A stretch of DNA of 39,684 nt from a virus (Duplodnaviria > Heunggongvirae > Uroviricota > Caudoviricetes): the IMG/VR virus record IMGVR_UViG_2740892027_000001; one strand, written 5' to 3'. Position numbers and translations under genes: made by a program. Below, in pieces: positions 30,322 through 36,980 of the stretch. The notes under the pieces were generated by a model, which did no database searches, was not told the DNA's origin, and was given only the letters and a program-made list of their open reading frames with translations. The first letter of the stretch is position 1; every line of letters begins with the position of its first letter.

Positions 30322-31122
30322 TTACTTGATAAATCCTGCCGCCTTTCCCCGCCTGTATTCCTCCATCAGCCACTGCGCCGGTGTTATTCCCCCCAGGGTA
30401 GCGGCGTTAGGCATACACCCGAAACTTCGCCCTGGTGGATGGTAAACGTCTCTCCCTGTGTCCGGAGGCGTACTCATGGGTTCTGGCTTTGCCTGTATGC
30501 TGATCACCGGATCGGGTATCTGCTGTCCGGAAGCCACCTTTTTCGCCCAATCATCGAGCAGCCTGCGCGCGTGTTTCTCAACCTCAATCTCGCTAAGCTG
30601 GCGCTGATACATTGCACGGCGGGTATCACATACGACCCAGTACATAACCGGATGTCGCCACGGGAATCTTTCGGGACCACCAGGATATAAACTTTTTTCC
30701 TTGCTGTACCGGTGAAACTCCGCCATCACATCGTCAATGGTGACGCCAAGAACCATCTTGCTGTCTTTACACCACTTGATGAATTGCCCTGGCGACGGCC
30801 AGAACGGAGACTCACTGGCGCGGGCGTGGCGCATACCAGCAGAAACCTGTTCACGGGTTCGGATCCCCCCTTCGGCAAACGCAGCAATCCACTGCTGTTT
30901 TGCAGCGACTTCCTGCTCTGGCGTCTTCAGGTTGGTTACCACTGCCGCCGGAAACAGTTGTTTCAGCTGTTTGAAAAGGGCATCAACAAGCCTCTCTGCT
31001 GACATGTTCACCACATTGTCATTGTTGACGTACTGATGCTCATAACCTGACATGCGAGAAAGGGCTTCTCCGTCACGGTTTTGTATCGCGGTAAAAACGT
31101 TGTTCACAAGAAATCCTCCCAT
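30322..31122 (-). CDS. Replication protein P-like (DnaB helicase loader)
   Basis: 266 aa; GMRHARASESPFWPSPGQFIKWC and SLYPGGPERFPWRHPVMYWVV match lambda P motifs GMRVARRQNRPFLPSPGQFVAWC and GLYPDAESYPWKSNAHYWLV (recalled). Start codon uncertain because of 19-nt overlap with the O-like gene. Confidence 0.75.
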   Translation of the reverse strand: MGGFLVNNVFTAIQNRDGEALSRMSGYEHQYVNNDNVVNMSAERLVDALFKQLKQLFPAAVVTNLKTPEQEVAAKQQWIAAFAEGGIRTREQVSAGMRHARASESPFWPSPGQFIKWCKDSKMVLGVTIDDVMAEFHRYSKEKSLYPGGPERFPWRHPVMYWVVCDTRRAMYQRQLSEIEVEKHARRLLDDWAKKVASGQQIPDPVISIQAKPEPMSTPPDTGRDVYHPPGRSFGCMPNAATLGGITPAQWLMEEYRRGKAAGFIK

Positions 31123-31937
31123 GCTTCAGGGCTGTTCCAGTGCGGAACGTTGTTATCAGGTAATGTTGATTGCTTCTGTCTGCTAATCTGCAGCCGCCTT
31201 GCCAGCTTCTGCTCCCACTGTGCCTGATGGTATGCCTTACCCTCAGCCATCCAGTAAATTCTGAACTCTGCAAGTTCCTGTGCCGTTGGCAGACTGTCCA
31301 GGTAGATCCCCTGCAATGAGCTTTTCCGAAGAAAGTCATCTGATGGCTGCCATTGTTCATGCATGACAAATTTGCCTAATTGCCCTGGCCCACCAGGAGG
31401 AACAAAGTTATTCATCACGGCGTTGTTTGCGTCGGGGTCATGAGGCACAGAATCCCCGTTTTTTGTCCTGCTCTCCCTCTCTTGGTTAAATGACTGGTTA
31501 TATGACTGGTTCTGGATCCCGTTTTTGGGATCATTCAACATCCCGTTTTTGGGATCATTCAACATCCCGTTTTTGGGTATATTCCCGTTTTCGGTAACAT
31601 TACCGTTTTCGGTAACATTACCGTTTTCGGGTTCATTGCCCCCCTCCCGGTTGCCTTTAATGTTCCCGTTTTTGGTTATATTAAGAGAGAAAACCCGCAC
31701 TCTTTTTGTCGCTCCCTTTCTCTCTCCGGTATCTGAAATAAGCCCCATTTTCATGAGCGATATAAGCCCGGCCTGCACGGTTTTTTTATTCAGACAAGTG
31801 TCTTTAACGAGGCGTTCTATGCTGGGGTAGCAGAGGTTATATTCATCGGCTCTGTCAGCCATCGAGAGCAGTATGAGCTTTAATGACGAGCTACCTGGAT
31901 CTGTCTCCCAGGCCCAATCTGTTGCATGTCTGCTCAT
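31104..31937 (-). CDS. Replication initiator, lambda O-like, with origin iterons inside the gene
   Basis: 277 aa; N-terminal winged-helix-like region; central repetitive peptide NGNVTENGNVTENG...PKNGMLNDPKNGMLNDPKNG encoded by DNA iterons; immediately upstream of the P-like gene. Confidence 0.65.
   Translation of the reverse strand: MSRHATDWAWETDPGSSSLKLILLSMADRADEYNLCYPSIERLVKDTCLNKKTVQAGLISLMKMGLISDTGERKGATKRVRVFSLNITKNGNIKGNREGGNEPENGNVTENGNVTENGNIPKNGMLNDPKNGMLNDPKNGIQNQSYNQSFNQERESRTKNGDSVPHDPDANNAVMNNFVPPGGPGQLGKFVMHEQWQPSDDFLRKSSLQGIYLDSLPTAQELAEFRIYWMAEGKAYHQAQWEQKLARRLQISRQKQSTLPDNNVPHWNSPEAWEDFL
31515..31638. repeat. Replication-origin iterons (six tandem repeats with core CCGTTTT(T/C)GG)
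   Basis: Three copies of a 24-bp unit CATCCCGTTTTTGGGATCATTCAA then three of an 18-bp unit CCGTTTTCGGTAACATTA; a second short repeat ATGACTGGTT x2 at 31481-31510. Confidence 0.65.
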
Positions 31938-31952
31938 GATTAATCTCCGCTA

Positions 31953-32216
31953 TCAGCTTGAATGTTGTGGGGAGGAATTAATCATGATCTGCTTAATCTC
32001 TGCCCTGATACGACGGTTTGATTCCATGGTGCACTCAACACAGTGTCCGTTGTAAACCCAGCGTTCACTGTCATGTCCGTGCTTACATGTTTTTCCGGTG
32101 TAGTAGCGTTTAAGTCCGCGCTTTGCGGCATCAATACGTGTAATGATTTCCATGGTAAGCCCTGTTATTAGTATTGGGATTACGGTCATTTTGTGCTGAC
32201 ACAAAAAAAAGATCAA
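31953..32216 (-). CDS. Small zinc-finger protein (cII-like position)
   Basis: Up to 87 aa (true start probably internal); CKHGH...CVEC motif; between Cro-like and O-like genes. Confidence 0.4.
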   Translation of the reverse strand: MIFFLCQHKMTVIPILITGLTMEIITRIDAAKRGLKRYYTGKTCKHGHDSERWVYNGHCVECTMESNRRIRAEIKQIMINSSPQHSS

Positions 32217-32233
32217 CCAGATTTGGTTTTTTA

Positions 32234-32276
32234 TTACCTTTGAGGTGCGAATAGATATGAAAAGACCGCCGGGTGG
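32234..32276 (-). promoter_or_regulatory. Terminator-like hairpin after cro-like gene plus degenerate operator-like site
   Basis: Minus-strand hairpin GACCGCC-acc-CGGCGGTC + TTTTC at 32259-32276; imperfect TTACC-tttga-GGTGC at 32234-32248. Confidence 0.35.
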
Positions 32277-32303
32277 CGGTCTACAGAGGGTTGTGGCTGG
32301 ATA

Positions 32304-32534
32304 TCATGAGTAGAAGAAGTATGCCAGTTCTGCTTTTGAGCGCAGCCATTGTCTTGTTTTACAGGCTTTAAAAAGCCCATTCATCAATACTTTACCTGGC
32401 ATTTTGCGCTTACCTGTTAAGTGAGTCTGGATATAGTGACTCGTCGTTCCGGCTTCCTGTGCGAAGGCTTCACGCTCATCCGGAGTAAGTGCAAGCCAGT
32501 GCTTTTTGAAATCGAAATGTCCGTTATCGCTCAT
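32304..32534 (-). CDS. Cro-like HTH regulator
   Basis: 76 aa; helix-turn-helix-like EAFAQEAGTTSHYIQTHLTGKRK; first gene of the rightward early operon, divergent from the repressor gene across the operator cluster. Confidence 0.55.
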   Translation of the reverse strand: MSDNGHFDFKKHWLALTPDEREAFAQEAGTTSHYIQTHLTGKRKMPGKVLMNGLFKACKTRQWLRSKAELAYFFYS

Positions 32535-32570
32535 AGCTATTGCCTGATATTTATTTCAGATAATAAATAT

Positions 32571-32633
32571 TCACCCATAAGGTAACAAAAATCAAGGATA
32601 GTTACCTATGGGGTGCATTTACCTGTTGGGTAA
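32571..32633. promoter_or_regulatory. Immunity-region operator cluster: three sites between divergent cro-like and repressor genes
   Basis: TCACC-cataa-GGTAA (32571-85), TTACC-tatgg-GGTGC (32602-16) and perfect TTACC-tgttg-GGTAA (32619-33); a -35/-10-like TTGATT-N17-GAATAT for the cro-like gene overlaps the first site. Confidence 0.6.
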
Positions 32634-32688
32634 TATTGCTTTAAATTGAATCATCTACTGATTCATATACGAGGCGATTTTCCAGAAA

Positions 32689-33273
32689 ATGAAAAGTATC
32701 CAGGACGTCCGCAGGCAAAATCTCAACGACTTGATCGACCGTGAATTCAATGGTGTTCAGACGCGGATGGCAGAAAAACTTGGAACTCAGGCAAATCTGG
32801 TAAACCGCTGGGCTCTTGGTAAGAAGGTTATCGGCGATCAGGTTGCGCGAAAAATTGAAGCTGCCGCCAATAAACCCCGTAACTGGCTTGATATCGATCG
32901 CTCGCTTTCTCAGGAAGGTTTTCAGCCTGTCGGCCCAAGCGACATTGGCCAGCTGGCGGCTCACAACCTGGAACGCTGGATGAGCGAAAGCCGCGACCTT
33001 TCAACACAGGGAAAACTTCACCGCGCATCCGGCGTAGCCCAGGTGACAATCAGCCGCCTGTTAAACAATGAGGTCAGCGTTTCCATTTCCACCCTGGAGA
33101 ATGTTGCATCTGCATTCGGGCGTCACGGATATGAACTACTGATTCACCCGCACGACCCTGCAACTATCAACTATGACCGCTCGCGCTACGCATTGTTACC
33201 TGAAACAGAGAAAGCAAAGATCGAAAGTTACATTGAATTTGTCATCAACCAGAACGAAAAAAGCAAACAATAA
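32689..33273 (+). CDS. Prophage repressor candidate (two HTH domains, no S24 peptidase domain)
   Basis: 194 aa; HTH at QTRMAEKLGTQANLVNRWALGKK and a second at KLHRASGVAQVTISRLLNNEV; divergent from the cro-like gene; followed by a strong terminator. Confidence 0.6.
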   Translation: MKSIQDVRRQNLNDLIDREFNGVQTRMAEKLGTQANLVNRWALGKKVIGDQVARKIEAAANKPRNWLDIDRSLSQEGFQPVGPSDIGQLAAHNLERWMSESRDLSTQGKLHRASGVAQVTISRLLNNEVSVSISTLENVASAFGRHGYELLIHPHDPATINYDRSRYALLPETEKAKIESYIEFVINQNEKSKQ

Positions 33274-33294
33274 AACTATAGTTTTCAGCAAGTA

Positions 33295-33317
33295 AGCCGC
33301 CTCATGGCGGCTTTTTT
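33295..33317 (+). terminator. Intrinsic terminator (AGCCGCC-tcat-GGCGGCT + T6)
   Basis: Strong hairpin plus TTTTTT 22 nt after the repressor stop codon. Confidence 0.7.
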
Positions 33318-33330
33318 ATTGCCAGATAGA

Positions 33331-33345
33331 TTACCTTACGGGTAA
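33331..33345. promoter_or_regulatory. Operator-like palindrome TTACC-ttacg-GGTAA
   Basis: Perfect site immediately after the repressor terminator; same 17-mer as at 5991-6006. Confidence 0.55.
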
Positions 33346-33364
33346 TTTTTTTAACTCATATCTA

Positions 33365-33407
33365 TTGACACCAAACCAAATAAGCATAATTATTACCTCA
33401 ACGGTAA
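33365..33407 (+). promoter_or_regulatory. Candidate early-left promoter (consensus -35 TTGACA at 33365-33370) overlapped by operator TTACC-tcaac-GGTAA (33393-33407)
   Basis: Perfect TTGACA; AT-rich CATAATTATT in the -10 region with ambiguous spacing; operator overlaps the -10/+1 region; plus-strand operon starts downstream. Confidence 0.4.
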
Positions 33408-33426
33408 CAGACCGAGGTAACAAGTT

Positions 33427-33576
33427 ATGCAGTGGAAAATCATCAACGGTTGGTACTGCGTTACTGCATGCGGATTCATGAGCTGGAAGTTCCGCACCTT
33501 ACAGGAAGGCATCAAGTGGGCTTTCATCAGCAAAGAAGCTCGCGATGTGGCAAACGATAACGAGATATGGGAGTAG
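33427..33576 (+). CDS. Small hypothetical protein (first ORF of early-left operon)
   Basis: 49 aa (below the track's 60-aa cutoff); GAGG 8 nt upstream of ATG; co-oriented with the downstream operon. Confidence 0.3.
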   Translation: MQWKIINGWYCVTACGFMSWKFRTLQEGIKWAFISKEARDVANDNEIWE

Positions 33577-34926: not shown

Positions 34927-35744
34927 AACCGGGAATTTATTTCGACATCAGCAATGAGGACTACCACGCCGGTGACGGCGTGAGTAAGTCGCAACTGGAC
35001 ATGGTTGCCAAGAATCCGGCGCTTCTTAAATGGGTTCAGGCAGCACCAGAAGACGAAGAGAAAAAGTCTGCACTGGATATGGGAACCGCATTGCACTGTC
35101 TGCTTCTGGAGCCTGGAGAGTTCGACAAACGCTTCATTGTTTCACCGAAATTCGATCGTCGGACGAAACAAGGTAAAGCTGACGAAGAGGCATTTCTTCG
35201 TGATGTGGCGGATATGGGGATTACGGTACTTGATGCCGAGCAGTGGCGGAAACTGGAGCTGATGCGTGATAGCGCAATGGCTCACCCGGCGGCACGCTGG
35301 ATGCTGGAAGCCCCTGGTTACTGCGAAGCATCAATGTACTGGAACGATGAAGAGACGGGGGAGTTGTGCCGAATTCGTCCAGACAAATGGCTGAACGAGC
35401 ACAACGTGATCGTCGACGTGAAAAAGGTTGCAGATATGGACCGTTTTGCACGCCACATCGAGGAATTCCGCTACCACGTGCAGGACGCAATGTACCGCGA
35501 AGGCGCAATGAGGGTTACTGGTCAGCCGCATGGTTTTTTCTTTCTTGCCGTGAGCGAAAGCATTGATTGTGGTCGGTATCCGGTACGCGTGTTCGAGCTG
35601 GATGCGCAGGATGTCGATGCCGGGCACGCTCTGTTCCGCCGGGATCTGAATACCTATCACGAATGCCGCATCAATGATGAATGGGGCGGTGTGGAAATCA
35701 TTAAACGCCCTGAGTGGGCACGCAAACAGGATATGTACATATGA
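34923..35744 (+). CDS. RecE-like exodeoxyribonuclease VIII family protein (PD-(D/E)XK exonuclease)
   Basis: 273 aa; IRPDKW...IVDVKKV resembles the D...D/E-x-K nuclease motif; stop overlaps the recT start (ATGA). Confidence 0.6.
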   Translation: MKPGIYFDISNEDYHAGDGVSKSQLDMVAKNPALLKWVQAAPEDEEKKSALDMGTALHCLLLEPGEFDKRFIVSPKFDRRTKQGKADEEAFLRDVADMGITVLDAEQWRKLELMRDSAMAHPAARWMLEAPGYCEASMYWNDEETGELCRIRPDKWLNEHNVIVDVKKVADMDRFARHIEEFRYHVQDAMYREGAMRVTGQPHGFFFLAVSESIDCGRYPVRVFELDAQDVDAGHALFRRDLNTYHECRINDEWGGVEIIKRPEWARKQDMYI

Positions 35745-36682
35745 GCAACGACATCGCAAACATCAACGCACCAGTAGACACAGCAATCGCTGGAACTGCT
35801 GCAACTATTTTCAGCCCAGACGGCTTGAACCAACTGATGAAATTCGCCGAGGTAATGGCGCAAAGCCGCGTAACGGTACCGGCGCACCTCGCCGGGAAAC
35901 CAGCTGATTGCATGGCCGTGGCAATGCAGGCTGCGCAGTGGGGAATGAACCCGTTTGCCGTGGCTCAGAAAACCCATGTTGTGAACGGCACGCTAGGTTA
36001 TGAAGCCCAATTAGTAAACGCAGTTATCTCAACGATGTCGCCAACAAAAGATCGCATCAACTACGAGTGGTTCGGGCCGTGGGAACGCGTGATCGGTAAG
36101 TTTGTTGAGAAAACATCCAAAAACGGCAATCCATATATCGCACCAGGCTGGACTCTAAAAGACGAAGAAGGCTGCGGTGTTCGCGTATGGGCAACCATGA
36201 AGGGCGAGGATCAACCTCGAGTGCTTGAGTTAATGCTGTCTCAAGCACAGGTAAGAAACTCCACACTTTGGGCCAGTGATCCGAAACAACAACTCGCATA
36301 CCTTGCGACAAAACGCTGGTCTCGCCTGCACTGTCCTGACGTAATCATGGGCGTCTACACCCCAGACGAATTACAGGAAACGGCACCGCGCGTTGAGCGA
36401 GACATTACTCCGCAAACGACCACTGCTGCGGGAATGAACAGTCTGATCAACGCTAAACCAGCGAAAAAGCCTGATGAGCAAACGCGTAAAGCGGATAGCC
36501 GTGATCCAGAAGAAATGCTGATGGCCTTTACCAGCGCAGCGATGAATTACAGCACTGTCTCCGAACTGGATAAGGCTTACAAATACATTGCACAAAAACT
36601 TTCAGATGATGACGAACTGCTGGCAAAAGCCACCGACGTTTACAGCGTTCGTCGGGAAGAATTAAACGAAACATCTATGTAA
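35741..36682 (+). CDS. recT: RecT-like single-strand annealing recombinase
   Basis: About 313 aa from ATG 35741, translationally coupled to the exonuclease gene; size and context fit RecT. Not motif-verified. Confidence 0.6.
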   Translation: MSNDIANINAPVDTAIAGTAATIFSPDGLNQLMKFAEVMAQSRVTVPAHLAGKPADCMAVAMQAAQWGMNPFAVAQKTHVVNGTLGYEAQLVNAVISTMSPTKDRINYEWFGPWERVIGKFVEKTSKNGNPYIAPGWTLKDEEGCGVRVWATMKGEDQPRVLELMLSQAQVRNSTLWASDPKQQLAYLATKRWSRLHCPDVIMGVYTPDELQETAPRVERDITPQTTTAAGMNSLINAKPAKKPDEQTRKADSRDPEEMLMAFTSAAMNYSTVSELDKAYKYIAQKLSDDDELLAKATDVYSVRREELNETSM

Positions 36683-36731
36683 CCACCACCGCGGCGCCAC
36701 GCGCGCCGCACTGCAACCAAGAGAGGTATTT

Positions 36732-36980
36732 ATGAAAGGTGCATTAGGTAAGAAGGAACTCCTGGCGGTGGTGCCACTGTCATGGAGCACTATCGACCGT
36801 ATGGAGCGCGCAGGGGAATTTCCTAAACGCTGGTATATCACCGATAAACGCTGCGCATGGAACCGTGATGAAGTTGAGCGTTGGCTTGATGAACGTCAGG
36901 CAGCAAGCCCGGCAGAGTTCCAGGGTAAAAAACCTCCTGTTCAGCAACGTGTATATCGTCCCGTGAGCAACGCGGCATGA
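36732..36980 (+). CDS. AlpA-family HTH protein (excisionase / regulator candidate)
   Basis: 82 aa; LSWSTIDRMERAGEFPKRWYI...WNRDEVERWL matches the AlpA-type pattern S-T-I-Y-R-L-x-x-G-x-F-P ... W-x-x-x-E-V-x-x-W. Confidence 0.6.
   Translation: MKGALGKKELLAVVPLSWSTIDRMERAGEFPKRWYITDKRCAWNRDEVERWLDERQAASPAEFQGKKPPVQQRVYRPVSNAA

Follow-up and report, generated by a model that had tools for sequence, protein, structure and literature searches.

In a 39,684-nt viral window (the whole stretch of DNA that we analysed), positions 31455-31694 very probably constitute the origin of theta replication of a temperate phage or prophage of phiV10-like (Uetakevirus) type, located in the linker-coding part of its own initiator gene. 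Judged from the sequence, the arrangement is of the lambda/phi80 origin-in-initiator kind, here with a different initiator family. Since placing the origin inside the initiator gene is classical, the basic call will be no surprise to a specialist. The finding assigns a putative origin to the phiV10-like phages, and prophages with this initiator gene occur in 424 out of 5426 complete E. coli genomes. None of the records inspected annotates an origin, and the initiator is named there 'primosomal protein' or 'DnaT-like'. We found no description of the present origin in the literature on phiV10, epsilon15 and DnaT-linked origins or iterons, while literature searches with the core sequences returned mostly papillomavirus E2 sites and primers.

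The initiator gene and its iterons

The initiator gene is set in a repressor/cro-like/initiator/P module, and the parts that concern us are as follows.

31104-31937, minus strand: replication initiator gene, 277 aa (ORF with Pfam and PHROG matches)
31677-31937, minus strand: N-terminal winged-helix domain, aa 1-87 (Pfam HTH_36 at aa 18-67, E 1.9e-10)
31380-31676, minus strand: repeat-encoded linker between the two domains, aa 88-186
31107-31379, minus strand: DnaT-like C-terminal domain, aa 187-277 (Pfam DnaT at aa 190-258, E 1.2e-15)
30322-31122, minus strand: lambda-P family helicase-loader gene (Pfam Phage_lambda_P, PF06992, E 1.5e-56; phrog_109 'P-like helicase loader')

The loader gene lies immediately downstream, its start overlapping the end of the initiator gene, and its product is 35% identical to phi80 gp14 (E 6e-46). 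Over aa 1-275 the initiator matches phrog_1032, a 'replication initiation protein' family (E 2.3e-110), and thus belongs to the HTH_36/DnaD_N-like winged-helix phage initiators. An earlier note on this DNA had called it O-like, which is right as to function and layout but not as to homology: with its HTH_36 and DnaT-like domains the protein is no lambda-O homologue, Phage_rep_O (PF04492) gave no match at E <= 0.01 in the Pfam search, and BLASTP against phi80 gp15 found no similarity (E = 11). By its domain composition, the initiator represents a family different from lambda O, in which origins are unannotated. In databases the protein is misleadingly called 'primosomal protein I' or 'DnaT'. 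The C-terminal ~70 residues do match the DNA-binding domain of E. coli DnaT, but the N-terminal winged helix is unrelated to that protein, and the NCBIfam DnaT equivalog NF002770 scored 85.2 bits against a cutoff of 201, with only aa 187-270 aligning. The protein-database matches listed for the initiator are near-identical E. coli alleles. A profile of the N-domain retrieved nothing significant from PDB sequences (best E 0.069), and a single-sequence AlphaFold2 model of the initiator was unusable (mean pLDDT 36.5, pTM 0.24).

Exact matches to CCGTTTTYGG number eight in the window, against 0.15 ± 0.44 expected, and at least eight were reached in none of 100 shuffles. Seven of them form direct repeats within 157 bp (31519-31675), inside the initiator coding sequence and between the two domains (aa 88-140 of 277). 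The eighth is a lone site at 36117, outside this cluster, and the exact-core scan revealed no other iteron cluster in the 39.7-kb window. On the plus strand the clustered cores start at 31519, 31543, 31567, 31585, 31603, 31621 and 31666, which in gene sense order gives spacings of 45, 18, 18, 18, 24 and 24 bp.

31663-31678, minus strand: iteron 1, isolated (core 31666-31675; plus strand TTCCCGTTTTTGGTTA), the next core being 45 bp downstream in gene sense
31516-31633, minus strand: six-iteron array, three at 18-bp pitch and three at 24-bp pitch
31618-31633, 31600-31615 and 31582-31597, minus strand: 16-bp dyads at 18-bp pitch, read from the sequence
31564-31579, 31540-31555 and 31516-31531, minus strand: 16-bp dyads at 24-bp pitch, read from the sequence

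Tandem Repeats Finder recovered both unit lengths that the earlier note had described, the 24-bp unit (2.6 copies, 31516-31577, 100% matches, score 124) and the 18-bp unit (2.8 copies, 31581-31630, 96% matches, score 93). The translation of ORF 31104-31937 agrees with its placement of the repeats inside coding sequence as a repetitive peptide, ...NGNVTENGNVTENGNIPKNGMLNDPKNGMLNDPKNGIQNQSYNQSFNQ..., in the linker. The tandem cores that it had counted as six are real, but seven are exact, the seventh (31666) falling outside 31470-31640. Besides this copy, it had overlooked that every unit is a dyad and that the repeat peptide is the inter-domain linker. In gene sense the units read GTTACCGAAAACGGGAAT and GATCCCAAAAACGGGATG. 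Each iteron is a 16-bp dyad with a central A-tract, either ATCCCG-TTTT-TGGGAT (5+5) or TTACCG-TTTT-CGGTAA (perfect 6+6), and in the site matrix of the family 60 of 127 sites have complementary bases at the flank pair 6/21, where 33.7 would be expected. One consensus fits both the 24- and the 18-bp units, whose arms differ; the two iteron subfamilies proposed before are two unit lengths, with no sign of two binding proteins.

Iteron 1 keeps its 45-bp spacing in all 78 near-identical loci, and several alleles carry there the core variant CCAAAAAAGG (peptide ITKKG). A one-mismatch core at 31456 was not counted among the iterons, since near-identical alleles differ freely there (peptides TKNG, TKSG and TKTG). 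Terminator-like plus-strand hairpins within the array are by-products of adjacent dyad arms and terminate no real transcript, and a 5-bp CGGGG/CCCCG inverted repeat (31433-31458) is too weak to claim.

Constraint on the DNA across the initiator family

We compared 80 diverse genomic loci with N-domains that share 41-87% identity with that of the window. In these loci, 124 of 133 exact cores were on the sense strand, at +200 to +600 nt relative to the gene start. Likewise, the core stands just past the N-domain coding part in 81 distinct genes that have a homologous N-domain and come from several proteobacterial classes. These genes are related and not independent samples, so that the following counts overstate independent events: 105 cores are in frame 1 (peptides PKNG/PENG), 29 in frame 2 (QKR) and 9 in frame 0 (PKTE/PKTG). 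Spacings that are not multiples of three occur inside single genes, as in Vibrio salinus locus L091 (17, 17, 23 and 24). Codon usage in the linker [KE]NG is close to invariant (K AAA:AAG 67:0; E GAA:GAG 39:0; N AAC:AAT 102:4), whereas outside the linker the same genes use AAA:AAG at ~65:35, GAA:GAG at ~61:39 and AAC:AAT at ~53:47. Three frames together with frozen synonymous codons mean that the DNA, not the peptide, is constrained, and in these alignments selection is on the DNA sequence. The family thus offers a clean natural example of dual coding, a DNA site carried in three reading frames with its synonymous codons frozen.

Units are gained and lost whole between alleles. The 78 near-identical loci contain 4-9 exact cores, and database allele P0001 has eight MLNDPKNG units and ~11 cores, so that iteron copy number among E. 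coli prophages extends from 4 to at least, or about, 11; the reading frame is kept in every unit-number allele.

Such polymorphism is what a tolerant linker would display, and the repeats might matter only as protein, as a slippage-prone, low-complexity flexible linker (PKNG/TENG) with no DNA function. All eight copies in the window do share one frame, with spacings of 18, 24, 45 and 63 nt, and the tandem units are clearly duplication products. However, the 10-nt core is kept in three frames that yield unrelated peptides, often within one gene, and its synonymous sites are frozen. Moreover, a peptide repeat needs no dyad, yet every unit is one, and the core is that of the annotated initiator-binding sites of phi80, where it is read in another frame (PKTG). 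We consider a purely protein-level role extremely improbable.

Of 49 loci with an N-domain of the standard length class, 37 have the exact core, against none of 31 loci in a longer, mainly Acinetobacter, class, which has CCAACRWTGG-type repeats at the equivalent place (three loci sampled). SPN1S, with another N-domain and the same DnaT C-domain, is without the core and has GTCCGC repeats of its own. By these comparisons, the iteron motif goes with a single N-domain family and shifts with its subfamilies. The core variants seen were CCRAAAACGG, CCAACRWTGG, CCAAAAGTGG and CCGGAAACGG.

Candidate unwinding DNA and proposed mechanism

A conserved second repeat, AACCAGTCAT, comes after the iteron array, and two further stretches of the region are of interest for DNA opening.

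31483-31511, minus strand: second repeat, 12-bp unit, 2.4 copies, AACCAGTCATWT in gene sense (Tandem Repeats Finder, 94%, score 51)
31455-31490, minus strand: tract with a purine-rich sense strand (plus strand 78% pyrimidine), containing the degenerate core 31456-31465
31669-31693, no strand assigned: 25-bp duplex with the lowest stability in the gene, TTTTTGGTTATATTAAGAGAGAAAA, adjoining iteron 1 (nearest-neighbour stability scan)

The second repeat adjoins the last iteron on its downstream side in gene sense, has 34% G+C (66% A+T) and includes the twofold direct repeat of the earlier note, ATGACTGGTT, which we confirmed at 31490-31499 and 31502-31511. Related GAAYC-type repeats of 11-13 nt follow the last iteron family-wide. 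Among close relatives the copy number of the second repeat is 1-3; several relatives show a clear A-rich tract after it, and in several family members C/G-run palindromes come after GAAYCAGTCA repeats. These regularities provide a simple rule for locating origins in many proteobacterial phages: CCRAAAAYGG and then GAAYC repeats, just past the part coding for an HTH_36 N-domain.

The duplex at 31669-31693 has a dG of -26.0 (mean for the window -33.9, sd 2.9), among the least stable 0.3% of the 25-mers in the window, and lies on the side of the array opposite to the 12-bp repeats. Composition and stability scans of the window revealed no strongly AT-rich tract of the 38-bp lambda style. We regard 31483-31511 as a weak candidate unwinding element and 31669-31693 as an alternative, likewise weak candidate. 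The fragment 31450-31660 put forward in the earlier note excludes both iteron 1 (31663-31678) and this least stable DNA. The cumulative GC skew has its minimum at 31-33.5 kb, compatible with an origin, but we gave it no weight as evidence, since the strand switch between the divergent early operons falls there and divergent transcription confounds the skew.

We propose that the N-terminal winged helix binds the seven 16-bp dyad iterons, probably as dimers, through the consensus nnnCCR-AAAA-YGGnnn with its A-tract centre. The bound array would distort the DNA and open neighbouring DNA of low stability: on one side the 12-bp AACCAGTCATWT repeats together with the purine-rich tract or, on the other, the AT-rich 25-mer next to iteron 1. 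The DnaT-like C-terminal domain would then recruit the P-like loader carrying the host DnaB helicase.

The same binding sites could instead serve control, by autoregulating the early operon, by titration or handcuffing, or by excluding related phages, with initiation taking place elsewhere. The window is without a strong AT-rich tract, polymorphic copy number would suit titration, lambda iterons cloned without the AT-rich part suffice to silence replication of a homologous phage (PMC3349717), and the six iterons of Stx phages are unequally filled (PMC7466680). Against this, the only other exact core in 39.7 kb is the single site at 36117, the last iteron is directly flanked by the conserved second repeat, joined in many relatives by an A-rich tract, as in complete origins, and annotation puts initiator-binding sites (phi80) or the rep_origin (P22) at the homologous position. 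Sites for control alone are in our opinion unlikely.

Relation to known origins

The lambda ori-in-O arrangement proposed in the earlier note is supported by the mid-gene linker position, the P gene next to it, the selection at DNA level and the identity of the core with that of phi80. Gene 15 of phi80 carries four sites annotated 'protein_bind gp15' (36663-36739) of the TTCCCGAAAACGGGAA type, which corresponds to the window core; the core is common to this sequence and to TTACCGAAAACGGGAA and ATCCCAAAAACGGGAT of the window, whose units carry the phi80-type core CCGAAAACGG with C/G arms. In both phages the iterons lie mid-initiator gene and a P-family loader (gp14 in phi80) comes next. The four phi80 iterons have a regular 21-bp pitch, absent from the window, and the PKTG frame, whereas the window has seven iterons at 18-, 24- and 45-bp pitches in the PKNG frame. 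The proteins also differ, gp15 combining a Phage_rep_O N-domain with a lambda-O-type C-domain and the window initiator HTH_36 with a DnaT-like domain. A comparison of the N-domain profile with the gp15 N-domain by hhalign aligned 28 helix-turn-helix columns only (probability 15%). As the phi80 core occurs with a Phage_rep_O N-domain, the motif is not exclusive to the HTH_36-type domain. All 80 viral loci retrieved with the phi80 N-domain were 94-100% identical to phi80 itself and contributed no further diversity. In Edwardsiella phage GF-2, the initiator has an HTH_36 N-domain joined to a phi80-like linker and C-domain; this mosaic protein and the core shared with phi80 bear on the recombination of lambdoid replication modules.

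That phi80 and the HTH_36 family share the core, with N-domains of no detectable sequence similarity, and that the GF-2 protein mixes the two types, could mean that the core is recognised by a host protein or by another phage protein and not by the N-domain of this initiator. This is very unlikely in our judgement. The core varies with N-domain subfamily inside the HTH_36 family and is gone where the N-domain is replaced (SPN1S), and the hosts, from Desulfovibrionaceae to Enterobacteriaceae, are too diverse for a single host factor to be likely. Furthermore, both N-domains are winged-helix and give weak mutual signals (Phage_rep_O weakly matches one of five family N-domains, E 0.035, and DnaD_N is matched by all five tested), so that distant homology could explain the common site.

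A bolder idea, which we hold as tentative and rather doubtful, is that the CCRAAAAYGG iteron and the GAAYC-type 11-13-nt repeat form an ancient portable origin cassette, common to sequence-unrelated N-domains (HTH_36-type and phi80 Phage_rep_O-type) and to several proteobacterial classes. If so, two very divergent winged helices would have retained a single DNA specificity although evolution has carried them very far apart or, alternatively, mosaic recombination at the iterons would swap N-domains onto a common origin. The 4 to ~11 iterons of E. coli prophages would moreover act as a dial by which replication strength, or the incompatibility of co-resident prophages, could be tuned.

The lambda iteron, TCCCTCAAAACGAGGGA, is dyad-symmetric with a central A-tract. 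As in the window, the lambda origin of dyad iterons with an A-tract occupies the linker-coding middle of an initiator gene whose product has a DNA-binding domain at the N-terminus and a partner-binding domain at the C-terminus, with a P homologue encoded downstream. In contrast to the window, both lambda initiator domains belong to other Pfam families and the iteron arms differ. Lambda ori, inside gene O, comprises four 18-bp iterons and an AT-rich tract of 38 bp, and P is the loader (PMC3349717, PMC7466680); the window has more iterons, variable in number, and no comparably AT-rich tract. The origins of Stx phages 933W and P27 have six iterons, the extra ones contributing to replication, and like the window exceed four through unit duplication (PMC7466680). 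In Stx phages the initiators are true lambda-O proteins and the iterons are of lambda type, whereas the window family varies from 4 to ~11 copies within the prophages of one species.

P22 resembles the window in having its annotated rep_origin inside the initiator gene (gene 18). Its iterons are followed by GAATCAGTCA, an AT-rich stretch and a CCCCCTAAAGGGGGA palindrome; GAATCAGTCA and the palindrome recall the GAAYCAGTCA repeats and C/G-run palindromes of the window family, although GAATCAGTCA may be simply a degenerate fourth iteron. Unlike the window initiator, gp18 is a Phage_rep_O protein (E 6.9e-38), the P22 iterons read ATCGGTAAAAC, and the partner is a DnaB-type helicase (gene 12) where the window has P.

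Repeat anatomy and gene context

The repeats lie within a minus-strand ORF of 277 aa (31104-31937), whose product carries an HTH_36 winged-helix domain (aa 18-67) and a DnaT-type domain (aa 190-258) and aligns along its whole length with phrog_1032, 'replication initiation protein' (E 2.3e-110). Gene layout and protein family mark it as a putative phage replication initiator. Public records name the gene 'primosomal protein I', 'DnaT' or 'DnaT-like ssDNA-binding domain-containing protein'; identity with DnaT was rejected, the score against the NCBIfam DnaT equivalog being 85 bits for a cutoff of 201. The downstream neighbour (30322-31122, minus strand) encodes P, a lambda-P family loader (E 1.5e-56), while upstream lie a small gene at the cro position and then a divergent repressor with two HTH motifs. 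The region is 95-97% identical to phiV10 and other Uetakevirus phages, and the four records inspected carry no origin annotation. At the position of lambda cII, a minus-strand ORF of 87 aa (31953-32216) contains CxH...CxxC-like residues (CKHGH...CVEC), its sole match being phrog_1081, of unknown function.

Tandem Repeats Finder detected a 24-bp unit (2.6 copies, 31516-31577, 100% matches), an 18-bp unit (2.8 copies, 31581-31630, 96% matches) and a 12-bp unit (2.4 copies, 31483-31511). The sequence CCGTTTTYGG occurs exactly at 31519, 31543, 31567, 31585, 31603, 31621 and 31666. These arrays and the cores at 31519-31621 agree with the repeat positions reported in the earlier note, which had counted six copies; all six are exact, and the seventh, at 31666, falls beyond its interval. 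The units are as follows.

Iterons of the window (start position, strand of reading, sequence)
31663, read on the + strand, iteron 1: TTCCCGTTTTTGGTTA
31618, read on the + strand: TTACCGTTTTCGGGTT
31600, read on the + strand: TTACCGTTTTCGGTAA
31582, read on the + strand: TTCCCGTTTTCGGTAA
31564, read on the + strand: ATCCCGTTTTTGGGTA
31540, read on the + strand: ATCCCGTTTTTGGGAT
31516, read on the + strand: ATCCCGTTTTTGGGAT

All seven are 16-bp dyads centred on a T4-5/A4-5 tract, a symmetry that the earlier note does not mention, and all lie inside the initiator ORF, where the repeats code for aa 88-140, the linker joining the HTH_36 and DnaT-type domains. The 39.7 kb hold eight exact cores against 0.15 expected, and none of 100 shuffles reached eight. 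The eighth (36117-36126, minus strand), inside the plus-strand ORF 35714-36682, is single and without neighbours and is probably due to chance. A one-mismatch core at 31456 was not counted as an iteron, as it varies freely among near-identical relatives.

Selection on the DNA and its tie to the N-terminal domain

Repeats within a coding sequence might be nothing but a linker selected as peptide. We examined 80 diverse genomic loci with N-domains 41-87% identical to that of the window, drawn from Vibrio, Pseudoalteromonas, Marinomonas, Acinetobacter, Providencia, Edwardsiella, Polaromonas, Sulfuricella, Sphingomonadales, Desulfovibrionaceae and others, plus five phages. The counted genes are kin, so the core, frame and codon counts do not represent independent events: in the 80 loci, 124 of 133 exact cores fell on the sense strand between +200 and +600 nt relative to the start of the gene, directly past the N-domain coding part; across 81 distinct genes the core was read 105 times in frame 1 (PKNG, PENG, TENG), 29 times in frame 2 (QKR) and nine times in frame 0 (PKTE, PKTG); and linker [KE]NG peptides, picked by peptide alone, used AAA for K (67:0), GAA for E (39:0) and AAC for N (102:4), compared with ~65:35, 61:39 and 53:47 for the same codon pairs outside the linker of the same genes. 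Frames were often mixed inside single genes, with spacings such as 17, 17, 23 and 24. When 127 distinct sites were combined in a position matrix, the element widened to AA-N4-CCCRAAAACGG-nA-N3-TT, with complementarity in excess in its flanks. Position, frames, synonymous codons and extended dyad point to a constraint on the DNA. A purely peptide-level role is scarcely tenable: frames, codons and dyads effectively exclude it, and a peptide repeat does not need 16-bp dyads. Concerted evolution within an array does not account for conservation over hosts this distant and over different frames.

The iteron type followed the N-domain. Among loci of the standard N-domain length class, 37 of 49 had the exact core; in a class, mainly Acinetobacter, whose N-domain is ~7 aa longer, it was absent from all 31 loci. 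Three sampled Acinetobacter prophages of this class (L110, L114 and L131, about 1790-1980 in local coordinates) have AACAGTMCCAACRWTGGAAC repeats in the corresponding position, with 17- and 22-nt pitches; among other lineages, CCAAAAGTGG occurs in Halodesulfovibrio and CCGGAAACGG in Desulfovibrionaceae. Salmonella phage SPN1S (initiator at 1030-1845 of its locus) keeps the DnaT-type C-domain with a different N-domain; it lacks the core, and inside the gene it has its own clustered GTCCGC/GCGGAC repeats (1083-1134 and 1362-1402), probably a different iteron set. SPN1S has no P gene downstream of the initiator and perhaps replicates through the host primosome without needing a loader. Across the HTH_36 family, C-domain and downstream partner vary freely: a DnaT-type C-domain with P, a lambda-O-type C-domain with P (phage GF-2), or a DnaB-like helicase downstream (phage AP22). 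Lambdoid O proteins follow the same pattern, the N-domain being tied to the iterons and the C-domain exchangeable.

Second repeat element, flanks and copy number

Right after the last iteron the window reads AACCAGTCATAT AACCAGTCATTT AACCAAG, and the direct repeat ATGACTGGTT x2 that had been described there is present. The family shows at this place C[AG]GAAYC and, after it, GAAYC-type repeats of 11-13 nt in two or three copies; within 45 nt past the last core, at least one GAAYC was found in 27 of 30 distinct loci and at least two in 19 of 30, for a background of 0.08 per 45 nt. Copies in Vibrio phage H20 are spaced 13 and then 12 nt apart and so fall into different frames (NQS, EPV), which points to a DNA element. 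In L110 a 13-nt AGAATCTATCAAT repeat occurs twice after the iterons, so that the second element persists there although the iteron has changed. Many relatives continue with an A-rich tract (in many cases AAAGATCT); a C-run/G-run palindrome also occurs in some. The window flank at 31483-31511 is moderately AT-rich (34% G+C) and is followed by a sense-strand purine-rich tract; the least stable DNA of the initiator gene (31669-31693) adjoins iteron 1, on the opposite side of the array.

Close relatives vary by whole repeat units. Of 5426 complete E. coli genomes, 424 contain the gene. Among 78 near-identical viral loci, genes carry four to nine exact cores and one to three copies of the 12-bp unit; the most frequent core spacing is 45, 18, 18, 24, 24 (six cores), and the window layout (45, 18, 18, 18, 24, 24) is a minority allele. 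Database alleles of the initiator range from 271 to 311 aa, one having eight MLNDPKNG units.

Known origins and a candidate mechanism

Inside lambda O lie four 18-bp iterons and an AT-rich tract of 38 bp (PMC3349717); in Stx phages the iterons number six (PMC7466680). The lambda ori-in-O reading of the earlier note holds in substance, in the arrangement and the P gene downstream; the protein, with no PF04492 match, stands outside the lambda O family. The closest match is phi80, whose core is the same and whose gene 15 contains four annotated gp15-binding sites at a 21-bp pitch (AACCGGAAACGGGAAG, TTCCCGAAAACGGGAA, TTCCCGAAATCAGGAA and TTCCCGAAAACGGTAG); the window's P and phi80 gp14 share 35% identity. 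Unlike the window initiator, gp15 is a Phage_rep_O protein: BLASTP between the two gave no similarity (E = 11), and the N-domain profile matched gp15 weakly over the helix-turn-helix (probability 15%). Phage_rep_O was marginal (E 0.035) in one of five family N-domains, and DnaD_N was matched by all five. Two N-domain families thus use one iteron type; the simplest reading would be distant homology with specificity retained. This coincidence of cores could also suggest recognition by a different protein, which we consider very unlikely given that the core changes with the N-domain subfamily and that the host range is wide. The initiator of Edwardsiella phage GF-2 (1501-2343 of its locus) is a mosaic of an HTH_36 N-domain and a phi80-like remainder, its linker and C-domain being 43% identical to gp15 (E 1e-35); with the joint at the iterons, the shared repeats may be places where replication modules recombine with one another. 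The annotated P22 origin contains GAATCAGTCA, an AT-rich stretch and a palindrome similar to the C-run/G-run one of some relatives.

The sequence comparisons show the anatomy, selection at the level of the DNA, the link to the N-domain, identity to the gp15-binding sites annotated in phi80 and a P gene alongside, and on these grounds we consider it likely that the repeat region is a replication origin embedded in the initiator gene. Lambda iterons alone can silence replication (PMC3349717), so the repeats might be control sites with initiation elsewhere; this is unlikely, since an exact-core search of the 39.7 kb found no second iteron cluster in the window and the flanking elements resemble a complete origin. 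For an embedded origin, by analogy with lambda, N-terminal winged-helix dimers would occupy the seven dyads, A-tracts and protein array would bend or wrap the DNA, an adjacent low-stability segment, on one side of the array or the other, would open, and P with host DnaB would be recruited by the DnaT-like C-domain; early transcription across the gene may assist, as in lambda. The origin-in-initiator arrangement is classical, and the proposed origin is an unannotated new member rather than a new kind. Of more interest are the family-wide conservation of sites in three frames, the conserved second repeat, the core shared with phi80 despite different N-domain families, and the strong polymorphism in copy number.

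The cumulative GC skew of the whole window has its minimum at 31000-33500, where the proposed origin and the divergence point of the early operons both lie, and so does not discriminate between the two. Three terminator-like hairpins with T-runs (31526-31605, + strand, antisense to the initiator gene) arise from the arms of adjacent iterons. In principle they could stop antisense transcription, but most probably they are a by-product. The 18-bp unit core ACCGAAAACGGT (31582-31633) matches exactly the ACCG-N4-CGGT consensus of papillomavirus E2 binding sites, which serves at the origin of that virus and surfaced in a literature search with the sequence; this is probably coincidence or convergence, a dimer binding a dyad with a bendable A-tract spacer. 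Three Dam sites (GATC) lie within 42 bp (31515-31556), compared with ~4 per kb in the window, two of them in GGGATC arms of 24-bp units, which makes the number of sites rise and fall with that of the iterons. In many relatives, and likewise in phi80, there is a GATC in the iteron flank or a AAAGATCT downstream, and a role of Dam or SeqA is possible.
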